Below, piece after piece: positions 1,690 through 36,523 of a stretch of DNA of 42,541 nt; position 1 is the stretch's first letter, and the number at the start of each line of letters is the position of its first letter. Location of the stretch: the IMG/VR virus record IMGVR_UViG_2529293215_000009. The stretch is one strand, 5' to 3'. The position numbers and the translations under genes are program-made. The notes under the pieces are model-generated. The model was not told the DNA's origin, made no database searches, and saw nothing but the letters and a program-made list of their open reading frames with translations. Origin of the DNA: a virus. Taxonomy: Duplodnaviria > Heunggongvirae > Uroviricota > Caudoviricetes.

Positions 1690-1862
1690 TGTAACCAGGT
1701 GAATCATTTGATACCAACGAGGGTTTTAGTGAAAGGAGGTGAAATCACCTGTAAGATACTGAAATAAAACAGGTGATGTCTGGATGAGCGCTTAAAGTCT
1801 ATTTGATACCGATTGTGCAATAATTAATCGTTTATTCTAAAATCGGCAAAACTTTTGATACT
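1690..1862 (+). repeat. left end (attL-like) with three TTTGATAC(C/T) putative transposase-binding repeats
   Basis: TTTGATACC at 1707..1715 and 1802..1810, TTTGATACT at 1854..1862; same motif in inverted orientation three times at right end; starts 5'-TGTA like Mu. Confidence 0.55.
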
Positions 1863-1939
1863 GCGATCTCAACTTTTTAAAGCGTTTAAAACTTCATTAA
1901 ATCTATATGGCAACTAACATACGGGCCAGCCTCGCCAAA

Positions 1940-2470
1940 CTAACCCGCTTTAGATTCTACCGGATTTGATTGCCTACTTGTCTCGGTTTTTTCCAAAATC
2001 TCTCTGACGCAATCGTCTGGCATATCTACAATCATCAACGCAGCCAGGCGCTTCCTGCCTTCTAGTTGTAATAAATCCTGGTTTTCTTTATCCAGCAGTG
2101 TCAGAACCGTCTCTACACCTTTGCGAGCAAGGAGATTGGTTAACTGTTCTCGTTCGTCTTTCGTAAGGAATGAAAGCATCTGTGTAAGTTGATCTCCCTT
2201 ATCACCAGAACAACCAAAATTACCACAAATACCAACATCGTTTGGTGATTCACCCTTGCCCTCTTTAAGCCACTCAAGACTAACTCCTTCACTTTCAGAA
2301 ATTCGTATAAGGATACTTTCTCTGGGGGCTGGTTGTGTTTGTCCTCCCTTGAAATAGCTGTTTAATGTGTTGATATTGATTCCCCACGCTCTGGCAGCTG
2401 CACTTCTTGAAGGGTAGCGCTTTGTAAGCATTCCAATACGTTCAATAACAGGTTCTTTTCCCTGCGACAT
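1940..2470 (-). CDS. c: prophage repressor (c-like), HTH DNA-binding
   Basis: Minus-strand ORF next to left end and divergent from ner as in Mu; HTH-like SRSAAARAWGININTLNSYFKGG; start taken at ATG 2470 (MSQGKEP) with upstream AGAGG. Confidence 0.65.
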   Translation of the reverse strand: MSQGKEPVIERIGMLTKRYPSRSAAARAWGININTLNSYFKGGQTQPAPRESILIRISESEGVSLEWLKEGKGESPNDVGICGNFGCSGDKGDQLTQMLSFLTKDEREQLTNLLARKGVETVLTLLDKENQDLLQLEGRKRLAALMIVDMPDDCVREILEKTETSRQSNPVESKAG

Positions 2471-2552
2471 AAAGATACCTCTTGGTGCTTTTCTAAGGAA
2501 AGGTTTCTTTCTATTTATCCAATTGAAAAATAAGGATAAAAGCAAAAATTAG

Positions 2553-2587
2553 CCAAAATACCAAAAATACCTTGATTTGGTATTTTT
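2553..2587. promoter_or_regulatory. operator-like repeats between c and ner
   Basis: CCAAAATACC AAAAATACC ttgattt GGTATTTTT: perfect 9-bp inverted repeat with 7-bp spacer plus a direct copy, in the divergent c/ner control region. Confidence 0.5.
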
Positions 2588-2600
2588 AGTGATGCATTAT

Positions 2601-2640
2601 TTACCCGTGCAGATATCCGCACGAATATCCGCGCGGGTAA
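2601..2640. promoter_or_regulatory. second operator-like element (inverted TTACCCG arms enclosing tandem ATATCCGC)
   Basis: TTACCCG at 2601..2607 and CGGGTAA at 2634..2640; ATATCCGC at 2613..2620 and 2625..2632, about 20 bp upstream of ner ATG. Confidence 0.4.
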
Positions 2641-2660
2641 CTTTTTAGAATAGAGGAAGT

Positions 2661-2909
2661 ATGAGTAGAAGAGAAGTTTCAGATCACGATTGGCCGCCTG
2701 AAATCATCAAGGCGCGCTTACACATGGCTGGCTTATCACTGCGCTCTTTATCTTTAAAGGCTGGTTACAGCAGGGATTCGCTGAAAAGCGTATTACGTAC
2801 TCCTTGCCGACCGTATCAGCAAATAATTGCTGATGCTCTTGGGGTATCGCCTGAAGAAATCTGGCCCAGTAGATACCAGGTTAAGAGCTATATGAGAAAG
2901 GCGTCATGA
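2661..2909 (+). CDS. ner: Ner-like DNA-binding regulator (Nlp/Ner family)
   Basis: 82 aa; C-terminal QQIIADALGVSPEEIWPSRYQ closely matches Mu Ner EQIIANALETKPEVIWPSRYQ; position immediately upstream of transposase. Confidence 0.85.
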   Translation: MSRREVSDHDWPPEIIKARLHMAGLSLRSLSLKAGYSRDSLKSVLRTPCRPYQQIIADALGVSPEEIWPSRYQVKSYMRKAS

Positions 2910-2910
2910 T

Positions 2911-5001
2911 ATGTATGTCATTGCAAAAGAACTGATTGGCGCGCCCGGAATGCCTGCTACAACAAAAGGTATTCGCCAGGCATTACAACGTTACGTACAA
3001 GGGAAAAGCTGTTGTTCCCGTCGTCGCTCAGGCTCTAAAGCAACTGAATACAGCATCGACTGTTTACCTGAAGTGACGCAGCAGGCATTACGTGAACGTT
3101 ATGCCCTGCAACTGATGACGCAAAAAGCCGATGAATCACCGGCTCCGGTAGTGACAAAGGCCAGGCGCTCACCTGCCGTGGTTGATGCGGTGGAGGCATA
3201 TCGCGGATCACCACAACTGATGGTCGAACGCCTTAATGCCCTGACTGAAAACCAGCGCCAGGTGGCTGATGCACGAATCGCGATCGTCAGCGAAGTTCTG
3301 AAAGTCGCGCAACAACCTGGTTTCAGCTGTGCGAAGGCTATCCGGTTTATCGTTGACAACCTGGCACGTTCGCAGCTGGACGAGCGCATTGTGGCAATGG
3401 TTGAGACGGCGAACGCCAAAAAGGGAAACAGCCGCGCGTTAAGTGAAATCACGCTGAAACGCTGGATTGCGGCCTTTAACAAGGCGCAGAACGCCGCTGA
3501 ACGCCTGCTTTTACTGGCACCGGGTAAGCGCCAGGAAATAAAAGCCGAAGATATTAACTGGCTGCCCGAATTTCTGGCGCAGTATCGCCAGTCAAACGGC
3601 CGACCAATGACCGAGGCTTACGAGGATTTTGTCGCTGAATGGCAGCACCGGCACGCTGATGAGCCTTATATGCTCGATATCATGCCGTCTTATGACACCA
3701 TTCGCCGCGCAATGAAGAAACTGCCGGAAGTGGTGAAACAAAAAGGCCGGGTGACCGGCAGTGAATACCGCCAGCTTGAGGGATTCACGCGCCGCGACTG
3801 GTCAAAAATGCCGGTGAATTATGTCTGGATTGGTGACGGTCACGGCATGAAGCTGAAATGCGCACACCCGGTTCACGGTCGGCCATTTGCACCGGAAGTG
3901 ACCTTTGTTATCGACGGTGGCACGCGCTTTGTGGTGGGCTGGAGCCTTGACCTGGCTGAAAATGTTTTCGCCGTAGCCGGTGCCATACAGCACGGCATTC
4001 GCCATCACGGCAAACCGTTTCTGTATTACTCGGATAACGGCTCCGGGGAAACCGCCGACATCCTGGATAAGGAGGTTGTGGGGATACTGCCGCGACTGGG
4101 GATTAATCACCCGACCGGGATTGCCGGTAATCCGCAGGGACGAGGCATTATCGAACGGCTTAACCGCACATTACCGATGCGCATAGCCCGTAAATACCGC
4201 ACCTATTTCGGGAAAGGTGCAGATCGCGAGACGTTACGCAAAACCAACCGCGATTTACGCTCGGCATTTACTGCCCTGCAACAGGGCAAACGGCTGAACG
4301 CCCGGCAGCAGTCAGCGATGCGTGATTTACCGTCCTGGTCTGAACTGATTGATGCCATTCGTGATGGTGTTGAGTGGTACAACAACCGGCCGCACGATGA
4401 ATTACCGGTGAAGCCGAACGGCAAGCATTACAGCCCGGCGGAGTTCAGAAAAAAACGCCTGGCGGAAGAGGACACGGAAATTGAATGGCTGTCCGATGTG
4501 GAATTGCGGGACATGTTCCGGCCGATGGTGGAACGCCCTGTAAGACGCTGTGAAATACGCTGGCTGAATAATATTTACTACGCGCCCGAGCTGCGTGATG
4601 AGCATGGCCGCAAGGTGCTTATCAGCTATGACATTCATGATGCCGAACGAATTACCGTACGTCGCCTGGATGGCAGCGTGATTTGCGAGGCGGTATGGGA
4701 CGGTAATAAACGCGAAGCCTTCCCGGTTAGCGCGGAATACTACAAACAGCAGCAACGCCTTAAAGGCATGCGTAAACGCGCAGAGGAAAAAATCCGTGAT
4801 GCCGAGGATGAGGTTGTCAACGTGCTGGAGCACAAGCCGCAGGAGCCCTGGCTGGAAAACATCTATCGCCCGGTAGGTAATACGGTGGCCGTTCAGCAAC
4901 CTGCCGTTGATGATGAGCCTGATGAAGAATACGAGCGCAATTTCCAGCGGGGATTGCAGTTGCTCGAAGCGAAATTAAAAGAAAATGACCCGCTGGCCTG
5001 A
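2911..5001 (+). CDS. A: Mu-type DDE transposase A
   Basis: 696 aa after ner; DDE-like blocks NYVWIGDGHGMK, LYYSDNGSGE, GNPQGRGIIERLNRTL; size and position as MuA. Confidence 0.9.
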   Translation: MYVIAKELIGAPGMPATTKGIRQALQRYVQGKSCCSRRRSGSKATEYSIDCLPEVTQQALRERYALQLMTQKADESPAPVVTKARRSPAVVDAVEAYRGSPQLMVERLNALTENQRQVADARIAIVSEVLKVAQQPGFSCAKAIRFIVDNLARSQLDERIVAMVETANAKKGNSRALSEITLKRWIAAFNKAQNAAERLLLLAPGKRQEIKAEDINWLPEFLAQYRQSNGRPMTEAYEDFVAEWQHRHADEPYMLDIMPSYDTIRRAMKKLPEVVKQKGRVTGSEYRQLEGFTRRDWSKMPVNYVWIGDGHGMKLKCAHPVHGRPFAPEVTFVIDGGTRFVVGWSLDLAENVFAVAGAIQHGIRHHGKPFLYYSDNGSGETADILDKEVVGILPRLGINHPTGIAGNPQGRGIIERLNRTLPMRIARKYRTYFGKGADRETLRKTNRDLRSAFTALQQGKRLNARQQSAMRDLPSWSELIDAIRDGVEWYNNRPHDELPVKPNGKHYSPAEFRKKRLAEEDTEIEWLSDVELRDMFRPMVERPVRRCEIRWLNNIYYAPELRDEHGRKVLISYDIHDAERITVRRLDGSVICEAVWDGNKREAFPVSAEYYKQQQRLKGMRKRAEEKIRDAEDEVVNVLEHKPQEPWLENIYRPVGNTVAVQQPAVDDEPDEEYERNFQRGLQLLEAKLKENDPLA

Positions 5002-10134: not shown

Positions 10135-10442
10135 TAACGACATTATTTGTTGAATCAGACGAGCCTCTGGTATGTGCCGCCGGAATGTCGGTTTGTGGCG
10201 GAACGCTGACCGGTGTTTATTTCGGGGATTTGCGCGGTTATCCCTGGCATTCACTGGATGACGCATTTCCGCCTGATATGGAGGCTGTCGTGCTGATTGT
10301 TCAGTATGGTGACCAACAGGAACTGCGCATCGGCCATATGGGGTATGAAGGCTTTTTTATTGATGAAGAAACCGGAGCCTGCCTTGAAGATGAGGACGGA
10401 CAGGTGACGCACTGGTGCCATATTTCAGCTTTACCGGAATGA
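10131..10442 (+). CDS. hypothetical protein (accessory early region)
   Basis: 103 aa; start overlaps upstream stop (ATGA). Confidence 0.4.
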   Translation: MITTLFVESDEPLVCAAGMSVCGGTLTGVYFGDLRGYPWHSLDDAFPPDMEAVVLIVQYGDQQELRIGHMGYEGFFIDEETGACLEDEDGQVTHWCHISALPE

Positions 10443-10456
10443 CGGGAGGTGAATGC

Positions 10457-10807
10457 GTGAGAAGTTATATTGATAATGAAAAACTGAAGACAATCAGCGA
10501 CTGTCTTAGCTTGCTGGCAAAAATAAAAGAAACCATTGAAGAGATTAAATTTCAGCTTGAATACGAACCCTGTGGCGATGATACATGGCGTAACTCTGCC
10601 AGAAAAGCACTGGCTGTCTTTCAGAAACAACGCCGGACTGTTGAATACCGCCTTGCTGTATTGCGCCAGGAGGAAAAGGAAAGAAATATAAGACGTCATG
10701 AACTCGTTAATGATTTTCTTGTTCGTGAATTAAAGGAGCGTGTGCCGGAGTCGGTATTTTTTGAGTGTGAGGCTGTTGCCCGTAGCAAAGCACTGGAAAC
10801 TGATTAA
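10457..10807 (+). CDS. hypothetical protein (start uncertain)
   Basis: ORF 10415..10807; GTG at 10457 preceded by GGGAGGTGA; coiled-coil-like composition. Confidence 0.35.
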   Translation: MRSYIDNEKLKTISDCLSLLAKIKETIEEIKFQLEYEPCGDDTWRNSARKALAVFQKQRRTVEYRLAVLRQEEKERNIRRHELVNDFLVRELKERVPESVFFECEAVARSKALETD

Positions 10808-10819
10808 ACAGGCAGGTGA

Positions 10820-12206: not shown

Positions 12207-12632
12207 ATGGCAGAAACTCAGATGAGCATGTTTGGTGGTGACAGTGAGCAACTGCACGCCCTTATCGACCGCCTTGATGACATCCCTGATGATGTTCTCA
12301 AAAAGAACTGGCCGCGGACCCTGTCAGAACTGGTTGAAGTCACCGGCGCAGAACTTCAGCGTCAGGGGATTGAGCCGGTACTGGCCGGTAAACTGGCACG
12401 CAAGGTGGCTGCGGCTCAGGCAGCCTATATGGGCGGACGGGGTTATTACCTGCCGGTCGGGGAATCTCTCTTTGCCGAGCTGCGAAACAATGAGATATTT
12501 TCGCGCTGGGACCGGGGCGAGAAAATTGAATCCCTTCGCCGCCATTACCGGATGTCAGAAACCCAGATTTATACCGTCATACGTGAACAGCGCCGTCTGC
12601 ATCTGGCAAGAACGCAACCGCCACTTTTCTGA
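12207..12632 (+). CDS. mor: Mor/C-family transcriptional activator
   Basis: 141 aa; LRNNEIFSRWDRGEKIESLRRHYRMSETQIYTVIREQRR parallels Mu Mor IRDLRIWNDFNGRNVSELTTRYGVTFNTVYKAIRRMRR. Confidence 0.8.
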   Translation: MAETQMSMFGGDSEQLHALIDRLDDIPDDVLKKNWPRTLSELVEVTGAELQRQGIEPVLAGKLARKVAAAQAAYMGGRGYYLPVGESLFAELRNNEIFSRWDRGEKIESLRRHYRMSETQIYTVIREQRRLHLARTQPPLF

Positions 12633-19834: not shown

Positions 19835-19955
19835 CGGTCAGTGGCGGGGGTTGAACCCGCATACATGATCCACCCGGAGGCAGGCACCGACTTTACCAGT
19901 TAAGCGTACACTGACCGCCTGTTTATTTTATATTCATCCTTTATGCGGAGGCAAT

Positions 19956-33440: not shown

Positions 33441-33991
33441 CCCTGACCCCGCATCAGCGTGCCCTGTTGCAGTTGCTGCCTGACGGGCTGGCATGGGATA
33501 AGCGGCCGTCATCCGTTCTTGCGGCTTTGTGCCTGGGCCTCAGTCATTCCACGGAGCGTGTTTCCTGGACCGGTAACCAGATGCTGGCAGAACGTTTTCC
33601 TGATTCATCCCGTCTGCTGCTGGAAGACTGGGAGCGTTATCTGGGGTTACCGGAATGTGATATGACCGGCGCAACAATTCAGGAGCGTCAGCGTTATGCC
33701 GGGAATAAATACCGGATGAAACCCTCTCTTAACCGTGAATTTTATATCCGGTTTGCGGCAGAGTTTGGTTATGAAATAGATATTCAGCCATCACCGGATT
33801 CACAGTGGGTCAGTATTGTCACGATTAACAGTGAAACCGGCTACCGGAATATGAATGTGCTGGATGATATTCTCACGCCGCTGCGTATTTATGAAGGCGG
33901 TGCGCTGGAATGTATTCTGAACCGTTATAAGCCTGCATGGCAGACGTTTATTTACGTGTATGCAAACAGCCATGAAGAGGAGACTATTTAA
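33431..33991 (+). CDS. tail protein (Mu gp48 position)
   Basis: 186 aa immediately upstream of tail fibre gene. Confidence 0.6.
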   Translation: MAVTLTPHQRALLQLLPDGLAWDKRPSSVLAALCLGLSHSTERVSWTGNQMLAERFPDSSRLLLEDWERYLGLPECDMTGATIQERQRYAGNKYRMKPSLNREFYIRFAAEFGYEIDIQPSPDSQWVSIVTINSETGYRNMNVLDDILTPLRIYEGGALECILNRYKPAWQTFIYVYANSHEEETI

Positions 33992-34902
33992 TGTTTCATG
34001 TTGATAATAATTCCGGCGTGGCGAATATGCCTGCGCTGGCACCGGCGCAGAGTAATACCACCACCTGGTTTACCGAAGGTGACGGACAAAAAGGTATCAG
34101 CTGGATTGGTCAGGACTGGCTGAATATTCTCCAGGCCGAACTGCTGAATATTCTGGCTGAAGCCAGTATTCAGCCGGATAAGGCGCAGTTAAACCAGCTT
34201 ACGCTGTCCATTAAAGCCATTATCGCTGCGAATGCCTTTTCCCGGAAAAACAACCTGAAAGAAATTGCTGATGCCGGTGCGGAAGCCCAGCGTCTTGCCC
34301 GTGGTTATCTTGGTCTTGGGGCGCTTGCCACAAAAAACAGTCTTGGTCCCGGTGACGTTAATGCTCTGGCGAAGGATCAGAACCTTGCCGACCTGGAGAA
34401 TGCGGGAACCGCCCGTAATAATCTGGATGTTTACAGCAAAAGCGAAGGTGATAACCGTTACCTGCGCAGGGAGCAGAACGGCGCAGACATTCCGGATAAA
34501 GGCGCTTTTATCGATAACGTCGGTTTACGGGAAACGGTAAATAAGGCTGCTGATGCCCTGCCATCGGGTGGAACCGCCGTGGCAGCAAACAGACTCGCCA
34601 CCCCAAGAAATATTAATGGCGTTCCTTTTGACGGAACGCAGGATATCAACATCACGTCAGGAATGACGCAGTCAACCGCAGATGGCCGGTATGTACAGAA
34701 TGTTCAGCTTGGAGCACAGAGCTATCATTCACCCGGAGGCAATGAAATATCATGGAATTACAGCGCACCTTCCGGTTGTATGCTTTCCGGTATTAACGTG
34801 CAGGAAACCGGCTCCCGGTCTGCGGACAATATCGGTGGGGTCTATTATCGCCCGGTTCAGATTTATATTAATAATGCCTGGAGAACGGTAAGTTCAGTGT
34901 AA
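33991..34902 (+). CDS. S: tail fibre protein S (constant part 33991..34520 fused to variable part Sv 34521..34902)
   Basis: 303 aa; gix-like site inside coding sequence at 34508..34533; C-terminal YYRPVQIYINNAWRTVSSV parallels the inverted cassette on the other strand. Confidence 0.8.
   Translation: MFHVDNNSGVANMPALAPAQSNTTTWFTEGDGQKGISWIGQDWLNILQAELLNILAEASIQPDKAQLNQLTLSIKAIIAANAFSRKNNLKEIADAGAEAQRLARGYLGLGALATKNSLGPGDVNALAKDQNLADLENAGTARNNLDVYSKSEGDNRYLRREQNGADIPDKGAFIDNVGLRETVNKAADALPSGGTAVAANRLATPRNINGVPFDGTQDINITSGMTQSTADGRYVQNVQLGAQSYHSPGGNEISWNYSAPSGCMLSGINVQETGSRSADNIGGVYYRPVQIYINNAWRTVSSV
34508..34533. promoter_or_regulatory. gix-like recombination site (left), inside S
   Basis: TTATCGATAACG TC GGTTTACGGGAA; resembles Gin/Hin site consensus TTATCCAAAACCTCGGTTTACAGGAA; core TCGGTTTACGGGA shared with right site in inverted orientation. 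Confidence 0.7.
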
Positions 34903-34936
34903 ACCACAGAAAAGGGTGCTGAATGCACCCTCTGAA

Positions 34937-35458
34937 TTATTCCGGTTTTTCCGGCCAGGGAATCGCCTGGTAATGCCCCTCACTGGCAATATCATTAAAG
35001 TGCATTTCTTTAAGCTGTCGGATATACGCCATCCAGCGCGTCAGCTGTAATTTATTTTCATCGCTAATCATGTCCAGTTTTAATTCTGTTTTCCAGTCAT
35101 CCACGGTTTCGTTGGCTTCCTGGAGCAGCGATGAGCGACGCTTTTCAGCAACCGTCTTCCAGTTTACCGGCACCTTTGATATCAGGCCATCAGAACACTG
35201 CCAGTTACCGTCAATATTCACACCTTCCGGCAGTTCGTCCACTTCAACAACAGTAAAACCTGCCGGATATAAAGCAGAGACATCTTCAGCAACAGAGCAG
35301 ATAATACCCGTTACAGGCGAAATACAGAGTTTGTATTTCTTTGTGAAAAGCGGGATAGATTCATAAAAATCCCTTCCGTCCTCACTCTGGAAATACTGAA
35401 CATCCTCACCATAGGGTTTGTGTTCCGGGTAATATCGTTTTACGTTAATAAGCTCCAT
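34937..35458 (-). CDS. tail fibre assembly protein (Tfa, U-prime equivalent)
   Basis: ORF 34937..35569; ATG at 35458 preceded by AAGGTG; C-terminus WMAYIRQLKEMHFND...AIPWPEKPE resembles Tfa family. Confidence 0.7.
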   Translation of the reverse strand: MELINVKRYYPEHKPYGEDVQYFQSEDGRDFYESIPLFTKKYKLCISPVTGIICSVAEDVSALYPAGFTVVEVDELPEGVNIDGNWQCSDGLISKVPVNWKTVAEKRRSSLLQEANETVDDWKTELKLDMISDENKLQLTRWMAYIRQLKEMHFNDIASEGHYQAIPWPEKPE

Positions 35459-35537
35459 TATTTCACCTTGTTTTTGTTGAAAAGACAAAATCATCATATA
35501 TTTATTCAGATAATCTGTTTTTTGAACTACTGCACTT

Positions 35538-35896
35538 TTATGCGCTGGAAGCTGTTTTCCACGAACCATCTATCAGAAACTGAACAGGTCGATAATATGC
35601 GGTTACCGTTGCATTACCATCACCAGCGACATCAAGCCCTGTAAGTACGCATCCGTCAGGAACTTCAAAAATATTATATTGCATTCCAATCGTTGACCTT
35701 GAACCTCTTCGAATGCTTTGAACATAACGTGAGTCAGCCACAGACTGCGTCATCCCCGATGTAATATTTATATCCTGCGTTCCGTCAAATGGGACACCAT
35801 TAATATTTCTTGGAGTGGCGAGTTTATTCGCTGCAACAGCCGTTCCGTTCGATGGCAGGGCATTCGCGGCCCTGTTTACAGTATCCCGTAAACCGA
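35538..35896 (-). CDS. promoterless alternative tail-fibre C-terminal cassette (Sv-prime)
   Basis: Minus frame open from gixR to stop at 35538..35540; encodes NLGLRDTVNRAANALPSNGTAVAANKLATPRNINGVPFDGTQDINITSGMTQS..., parallel to Sv; no start codon. Confidence 0.7.
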
Positions 35897-35908
35897 GGTT
35901 TCAGGGAT
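35883..35908. promoter_or_regulatory. gix-like recombination site (right), adjacent to gin
   Basis: ATCCCGTAAACC GA GGTTTCAGGGAT, half-sites 10/12 palindromic; central GA complements the TC of the left site. Confidence 0.7.
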
Positions 35909-35962: not shown

Positions 35963-36523
35963 ATGCTGATTGGCTATATACGCGTATCAACAAATGACCA
36001 GAACACCGGTTTACAAAGAAATGCGCTGGAATGTGCAGGATGTGAGCAGATTTTTGAAGACAAAATGAGTGGTAAAACGACACAGCGGCCGGGACTGAAG
36101 CGGGCACTGAAGAAACTAAAACCCGGTGACACACTGATGGTCTGGAAACTGGACAGGCTGGGGCGCAGTATGCGCCACCTTGTTGCGCTGACAGATGAAT
36201 TACAGCAACAGGGGATAAATTTTCGTAGTCTTACTGACAACATTGATACGTCAACCCCCATGGGGCGCTTCTTTTTTCACATAATGGGTGCGCTGGCAGA
36301 AATGGAGCGTGAATTAATTGTCGAACGGACACGGGCTGGTCTTGCAGCTGCCCGTGAAAGGGGACGAACCGGCGGCAGACCCCGTCGTCTCACGCAGGAA
36401 CAATACGAGCAGGTCGGGCGTTTACTGGCCGGGGGTGTCAGTCGAAGACAGGTGGCACTTATTTTTGATATCGGCCTTTCAACCCTTTATCGTTATTATC
36501 CTGCGAGCGTTTCGGAAAAATAA
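35963..36523 (+). CDS. gin: serine DNA invertase (Gin/Hin/Pin family)
   Basis: 186 aa; N-terminal MLIGYIRVSTNDQ with catalytic Ser context, C-terminal HTH; immediately next to gix-like site. Confidence 0.92.
   Translation: MLIGYIRVSTNDQNTGLQRNALECAGCEQIFEDKMSGKTTQRPGLKRALKKLKPGDTLMVWKLDRLGRSMRHLVALTDELQQQGINFRSLTDNIDTSTPMGRFFFHIMGALAEMERELIVERTRAGLAAARERGRTGGRPRRLTQEQYEQVGRLLAGGVSRRQVALIFDIGLSTLYRYYPASVSEK

Follow-up and report, generated by a model that had tools for sequence, protein, structure and literature searches.

Organization of the invertible segment

The stretch of DNA analysed here (IMG/VR virus record IMGVR_UViG_2529293215_000009, 42,541 nucleotides; hereafter the window) contains a full-length Mu-like prophage at approximately 1690-40909 that shares 98.9% identity with Sakai Sp18 (E. 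coli O157:H7). The tail end of the prophage is arranged in the Mu gene order, namely baseplate J (gp47), gp48, fibre gene S, an invertible segment and a Gin-like invertase, and by sequence comparison the element is an Sp18-type Mu-like prophage with a switch of the Gin/G-segment type. The present work concerns the tail-fibre assembly gene (tfa) of this switch. Each alternative tip has its own chaperone in the fibre switches of Mu and P1; the segment in the window holds a single chaperone gene, which probably serves both tips and is probably transcribed from a promoter of its own inside the segment.

Features of the switch are listed in Table 1. The constant 5′ part of the fibre gene (Sc) lies outside the segment and the alternative in-frame 3′ parts (Sv and Sv′) lie inside it. 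Residues 1-198 of S match Mu S (5YVQ_A, E=1e-48), and Sc is homologous to this region of Mu S. The left crossover site shares 22 of its 26 positions with Mu gixL and occupies the equivalent place in the S gene. A 182-nt inverted repeat has the two crossover sites at its outer ends, and its left arm and right arm (35719-35900) are 79% complementary. The gene for the invertase, which is 75% identical to Mu Gin and has its catalytic serine within MLIGYIRVSTNDQ, adjoins the segment. Inversion of the segment in silico yields an in-frame S′ followed by tfa. All of these parts had been placed in a first-pass annotation of the window and were confirmed where it had put them. A weak gix-like match is also present at 36000-36013. 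Nested inversion of tfa alone was considered and rejected, the extra gix-like sites that would flank tfa being absent.

Table 1. Positions of the switch components, candidate regulatory sites and the gene beyond the invertase in the window
Feature	Position	Strand	Description
S as now expressed	33991-34902	+	303 aa; Sc 33991-34520, Sv 34521-34902
Left crossover site	34508-34533		26 bp, gix-like; TTATCGATAACG TC GGTTTACGGGAA; core TC at 34520-34521
Inverted repeat, left arm	34516-34697		codes for the N-terminal part common to Sv and Sv′
Hairpin with T-run	34911-34933	-	AGAGGGTGCATTCAGCACCCTTT TCTGTGGTTT; intrinsic-terminator-like for the tfa strand
tfa	34937-35458	-	173 aa, Caudo_TAP; sole tail-fibre assembly gene of the window
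Spacer (type A)	35459-35537	-	79 bp, AT-rich; Sv′ stop to tfa start
Candidate -10 hexamer in spacer	35493-35498	-	TATGAT; ends 34 nt before the tfa ATG
Sv′, silent alternative cassette	35538-35895	-	fused to Sc by inversion to give the 295-aa S′
Candidate promoter inside Sv′	35673-35703	-	TTCAAG, 19 nt, TATAAT; sigma-70-like
Right crossover site	35883-35908		26 bp, gix-like; core GA at 35895-35896; opposite in orientation to the left site
Gin-family serine DNA invertase	35963-36523	+	186 aa; Resolvase (E=1e-51) plus HTH_7
SASA/DUF6645 gene	36623-38662	+	679 aa; sialate-O-acetylesterase-like SASA domain plus DUF6645; 3′ of the invertase

A single chaperone gene in a segment with two fibre tips

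The Tfa protein matches PF02413 (Caudo_TAP) with E=5e-18 and 65.9 bits against a curated cut-off of 22.1, and Mu U (5YVQ_B) with E=2.9e-14 over residues 17-147. Genes of the Caudo_TAP family usually lie directly 3′ of their client fibre gene and are co-transcribed with it, but here the gene follows the silent cassette after 79 bp and is convergent with the expressed S. The first-pass annotation had described a single Tfa gene co-oriented with the silent minus-strand cassette, and an expressed S(Sc-Sv) that has no co-transcribed assembly gene in the present orientation; both descriptions hold, tfa being the one Caudo_TAP gene of the window and lying on the other strand. A second Tfa-like gene 3′ of Sv in the same orientation, the observation which that annotation regarded as fatal to its proposal, was sought by tblastn of Tfa (E up to 100). 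None was found anywhere in the window, where the next best match had E=0.4. The Sv and tfa stops are only 34 bp apart, tail-to-tail, which leaves no room there for a second tfa. The GTDB genome scan with the Tfa protein gave no matches, and the closest Tfa in the phage collection outside the Sp18-type elements is 53% identical.

The tfa frame remains open through the spacer up to an ATG inside Sv′, forming a 210-aa open reading frame (34937-35569, minus strand), and several database Tfa entries of 190-210 aa are called from such an upstream ATG. Homologues begin at MELINV, and the extended 210-aa start is probably an annotation artefact.

Homology suggests that Sv is a normal Tfa client, since homologous tips elsewhere are each paired with a Tfa. 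Over its last 70 residues, Sv has 70% identity to the fibre tip of Rac-SA53, 58-63% to those of P2-like phages and 40% to that of Mu S (E=4e-12), and in all three cases a Tfa begins 1-3 bp after the tip. The Tfa of Rac-SA53 is 53% identical to that of the window and the P2-like Tfa approximately 32%. Non-invertible Mu-like prophages (L018) likewise have an Sv-like tip followed by a Tfa which is 57% identical to the window Tfa. The Sv and Sv′ tips are approximately 41% identical to each other and have a C-terminal YYRPVQ..I.G.W motif in common. A structure of the Mu S tip bound to U is available (5YVQ), and in proteins of this kind the N-domain of Tfa binds the fibre while the C-domain drives trimerisation (summarised in PMC9608196). 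Judging from these similarities, it is plausible that a single Tfa acts on both tips. Some pairs suggest that the Tfa N-domain covaries with the convergent tip, but the signal is inconsistent overall.

Natural inversion and conservation of the layout

Complete E. coli genomes hold 182 copies of the segment in the present orientation and 23 in the flipped one, counted as matches over at least 80% of a 2.7-kb query to either the present or the in-silico flipped version. Both orientations are seen within O157:H7, some strains having two copies with one in each state, and IMG/VR copies are mostly in the present orientation with a similar bias. Presence of both states among the complete genomes establishes that the switch flips in nature. 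The bias could result from slow or biased inversion, or from selection for Sv-type fibres at infection. With an invertase, paired sites, a split fibre gene and both orientations, the system can be placed among the Din-family (Gin/Hin/Cin/Pin) invertase-driven tail-fibre switches on sequence grounds. It departs from the canonical layout of that family, in which each variable part has its own chaperone (U, U′), only in a typical and not a defining feature.

The layout with one tfa is found across lineages in which Tfa is 59-100% identical, and the tail-to-tail junction is kept at 32-35 bp. Relatives whose Tfa is 98%, 72% or 67% identical contain exactly one tfa each (L003-L006, L010-L017 and many IMG/VR loci), and several one-tfa lineages show both orientations. 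Tips convergent with tfa are of two related types that have an ADN(I/V)GGVYYRP signature in common, and the Sv tip is 74-100% identical across lineages. Tips co-directional with tfa are of four types, mutually only 30-47% identical. The first-pass annotation had suggested that related prophages be searched for a second Tfa gene; the relatives named above have one tfa each, and L025, which has the same backbone and a canonical two-chaperone segment, carries tips of the unrelated families Gp53-like_C and Collar. The phage backbone thus accepts either design. A one-chaperone design is also present in the Salmonella Mu-like prophages L027 and L071, with the unrelated chaperone family DUF4376; three crossover-site repeats, two serial silent cassettes and one common DUF4376 chaperone are located at 4900-8400 of L027 and at 5900-9400 of L071. 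Taken together, the comparisons indicate that the one-tfa layout is conserved and is not a recent accident or a product of decay.

The intergenic spacer and candidate promoters

In a survey anchored on S (24 gene pairs), the gap between the fibre stop and the chaperone start ranges from -11 to +20 bp where the tip has its own chaperone, and this range also holds in Mu, P2-like phages, Rac-SA53 and Fels-2. Where the chaperone is shared, the gap measures 51, 79 or 120-121 bp for Caudo_TAP and 69 or 90 bp for DUF4376. Among the related Mu-like phages, long spacers are confined to layouts with one shared chaperone. A second survey, anchored on the invertase and covering 80 further IMG/VR loci, returned mostly canonical two-chaperone segments; its counts were not used, as several apparent single-Tfa cases (for example L125 and L155) had a second small chaperone of a family outside the panel.

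The long spacers belong to five types which cannot be aligned with one another. Each has a TATAAT-like hexamer (at least 5 of 6 positions) ending 34-35 nt before the ATG; the window has type A, and the hexamer is AATAAT in type B, TATTAT in type C and TATAAT in types D and E. A common -10 register within 2 nt among four independent spacer types was obtained in 2 of 100,000 shuffles. The pattern of a spacer with a fixed register holds for the related Mu-like phages, and we do not claim that it is universal. The second candidate promoter of the window lies inside Sv′. Its position weight matrix score is in the top 0.008% of the window and its position is not conserved in other Sv′ types. Downstream of tfa, the hairpin read on the tfa strand (34933-34911) is followed by a T-run, whereas the same hairpin on the plus (S) strand has none.

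Expression of the tfa strand in Sakai

The segment is oriented alike in the window and in the Sakai reference genome. At the transition to stationary phase, ECs4990 (tfa) and ECs4991 (an Sv′ fragment) gave log2 values of 2.13 and 2.12, respectively, and both are listed among the genes with at least 4-fold change at that transition (Bergholz et al. 2007, PMC2241611). Across ten points the two profiles rise together, from approximately -1.0 to approximately +1.3, while ECs4989 (S) shifts by under 1 log2 unit, ECs4993 shows no change and ECs4986 decreases (PMC2241611). The parallel rise of ECs4990 and ECs4991, apart from their neighbours, shows that the Sv′-tfa strand is transcribed and is regulated apart from the late operon. 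It was also seen that ECs4990 and ECs4991 (window 34937-35741, minus strand) cluster with RpoS-type genes in the uninduced lysogen (PMC2241611).

The first-pass annotation had offered, as one possibility, that the AT-rich spacer, then given as 80 bp, carries a promoter which makes tfa independent of orientation. The AT-rich spacer is present with a length of 79 bp and independent expression of tfa is favoured. The promoter, though, is not necessarily confined to the spacer, because the array data put one promoter or more ahead of the ECs4991 probe.

Derivatives locked in one orientation

The invertase and the 5′ part of Sv′ are missing from seven IMG/VR loci (L033-L037, L044 and L049) and from seven complete genomes. 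The order in these locked copies is S, a convergent intact tfa, its upstream spacer, an Sv′ tip remnant of approximately 130 bp and the SASA gene. Four of the locked genomes (L090-L093) have the element at four different insertion sites, beside bcsA, citF, a type I hsdR gene and xdhA, and a range of non-O157 strains of human and mouse origin carry the locked layout. For a Mu-like element, transposition and infection are the only routes to new sites and strains. The four insertion sites thus imply that a lineage fixed without a co-transcribed tfa has kept spreading. Since Sv′ has been lost, the convergent S is the only possible client of tfa in these copies. Among the locked copies, tfa shows 7-11% protein difference with dN/dS of 0.11-0.16.

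A proposed shared, independently expressed chaperone and alternative explanations

We propose a host-range switch of the Gin/G-segment type in which one Tfa, expressed from its own promoter inside the segment in either orientation, would serve two tips of one structural family. Our estimate of the probability of this reading is about 60%. tfa flips with the segment and cannot always be co-transcribed with S, and it is on this account that we propose tfa to be a self-contained transcription unit, with a promoter upstream of it within the invertible segment. The spacer hexamer and the site inside Sv′ are the candidate promoters, and the hairpin on the tfa strand the putative terminator. With the segment as it now stands, the late operon would supply S(Sc-Sv), and a separate promoter on the other strand would drive tfa; once the segment is inverted, tfa is also positioned downstream of Sc-Sv′. 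Under this proposal, Tfa would also be made during lytic growth.

Several observations weigh against this proposal. The -35 regions in the spacers are poor and a simple sigma-70 scan of the spacer found no 9-of-12 site. An activator-dependent promoter would fit the poor -35 regions; Mu late promoters are activator-dependent. Two finds of the survey anchored on the invertase do not conform: the locus L131 has a shared Tfa and a 94-nt spacer, with the best -10 at 51 nt before the ATG, and in the L113 group (L113 and relatives, seen in one orientation only) a shared Tfa has no spacer. Synonymous divergence of tfa among the locked copies is far above that of the common junction; the variation probably came by recombination and the dN/dS is no proof of selection while locked. 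The array data come from uninduced lysogens and not from lytic growth, and the segment orientation is that of the reference genome and not a reading from the culture. ECs4991 responded to the same extent as ECs4990, which points to a start ahead of its probe, and the -10 in the spacer may be inactive or may not act alone. Finally, the promoter position is a prediction from sequence features.

Four other explanations have to be weighed against a shared Tfa. The Sv tip might fold chaperone-free, Tfa being needed only by the diverse Sv′ tips that it follows. It is consistent with this that all lineages have tfa in the direction of Sv′ and none in that of Sv, and that the same Tfa (98% identical) is found with unrelated Sv′ tips. 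However, the tips homologous to Sv in Rac-SA53, P2-like phages, L018 and Mu S all directly precede a Tfa of this family, the locked derivatives have retained an intact tfa with the convergent S as its only possible client, and the long spacers and the fixed -10 register are left unexplained; we regard a chaperone-free Sv as unlikely. Supply of Tfa for Sv fibres in trans by co-resident prophages, of which O157 has many, seems less likely again. Cross-function of Tfa between phages is established, and lambda Tfa can replace T4 gp38. Sakai has 18 prophages, 11 of them lambdoid (PMC2669165). Against supply in trans, the layout, its locked form included, is found in diverse non-O157 strains from humans and mice, a phage dependent on helpers would not retain its own intact tfa beside Sv, and the nearest Tfa in the phage collection beyond the Sp18-type elements is 53% identical.

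The canonical operon of fibre, chaperone and terminator is formed only in the flipped orientation, and one could suppose that the present orientation is an OFF or defective state, giving fibre-less or misfolded-fibre particles, with the flipped state alone productive. This is hard to reconcile with the finding that 182 of the 205 complete-genome copies and most IMG/VR copies are in the present orientation, that derivatives locked this way have reached four independent insertion sites and must have spread as phage to do so, and that Sv is the conserved tip; we consider a defective state very improbable. We give just as little credence to the layout being a recent degenerate remnant from which a second tfa, once located after Sv, has been deleted. 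The canonical two-chaperone segment of L025 on the same backbone speaks for such a loss, but its tips come from unrelated families, making it a different cassette and not an ancestor. Moreover, the one-tfa layout with its 32-35-bp junction is kept where Tfa differs by up to 41%, and the one-chaperone design recurs with the unrelated DUF4376 in L027 and L071.

A further idea, which reaches beyond the shared Tfa and which we hold to be doubtful, is that Sv′-tfa forms a lysogen-expressed, stationary-phase-induced module with a host function and that the shared-chaperone switch with fixed register represents a general design class of Mu-like phages not described before. Receptor masking or a block to superinfecting phages could be one such function. 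Fibre chimeras arising from PinQ/PinR inversion in cryptic prophages have reportedly been found of late to mask receptors or block superinfection.

Comparison with known switches

A close and well-known counterpart is the Mu G segment with Gin, whose invertase, gix-like sites within S and constant fibre part all correspond to those of the window. All four tips of the two systems are of one family and Tfa is homologous to both U and U′. In contrast, each Mu tip is followed after 2 bp by a chaperone gene of its own, two in all, whereas the single gene of the window comes 79 bp after the silent tip and runs towards the expressed one, and the variable parts are approximately 120 aa in the window as compared to approximately 330 aa in Mu. 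The H-G / G′-H′ region of the P2-like Fels-2 and the segment of L025 also have a Din-family invertase beside alternative fibre 3′ ends, but their layout is symmetrical with two chaperones, their tips are of different families and the gaps are -1 to 20 bp. The modules of Rac-SA53, P2-like phages and L018 have tips 58-70% identical to Sv and, unlike the window, do not invert; their Tfa lies 1-14 bp after the tip on the same strand. We take the multiple-inversion layout of L027 and L071 to be reminiscent of the Min system of p15B. The window differs from Min-type systems in having only two crossover sites.

The invertible region of Sp18, which is the same element, is already known. The single shared chaperone, the spacer and the independent regulation are not mentioned in the available part of the Sp18 report (PMC2669165), and no description of these features or of the locked derivatives turned up in the papers that the literature search covered. 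The one-chaperone switch is tidy and testable, but mechanistically unsurprising. A chaperone that is uncoupled from the fibre operon and serves tips which are 30-47% identical would be a leaner design and would imply broad Tfa specificity. Sharing could also explain how new tip cassettes are swapped in without a chaperone of their own. The rule predicted from these comparisons is that a shared chaperone has an upstream spacer with a promoter; it would be useful for reading the host-range modules of prophages and for the design of fibres whose tips are interchangeable and need only one helper.

Other features of the prophage

A late activator of the Mor/C family is encoded at 12207-12632 of the window. 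Alignment of the window with Sakai Sp18 continues through com and mom. An impression that mom was missing from the prophage came from an incomplete comparison copy and was rejected, as the alignment includes mom. Sp18 was judged intact and its DNA was found packaged by Asadulghani et al. 2009 (PMC2669165). Sp18-type copies are otherwise 98-99% identical, with an early-region stretch at 10137-10808 of the window that diverges from both the Sakai and NZ_CP038328 copies. The repressor-proximal left end (1780-3077) diverges from the NZ_CP038328 copy only. In that copy (L002), RefSeq annotates a 'tRNA-OTHER' between head genes on the minus strand at 19857-19936, equivalent to approximately 19836-19915 of the window; ARAGORN found no tRNA anywhere in the window.

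The SASA/DUF6645 gene is placed after the invertase in the Sp18-type relatives examined, and its product might be a receptor-modifying or tail-associated enzyme. Upstream of this gene, TATGATAAT is present approximately 30 nt before the ATG and is similar to the tfa spacer.

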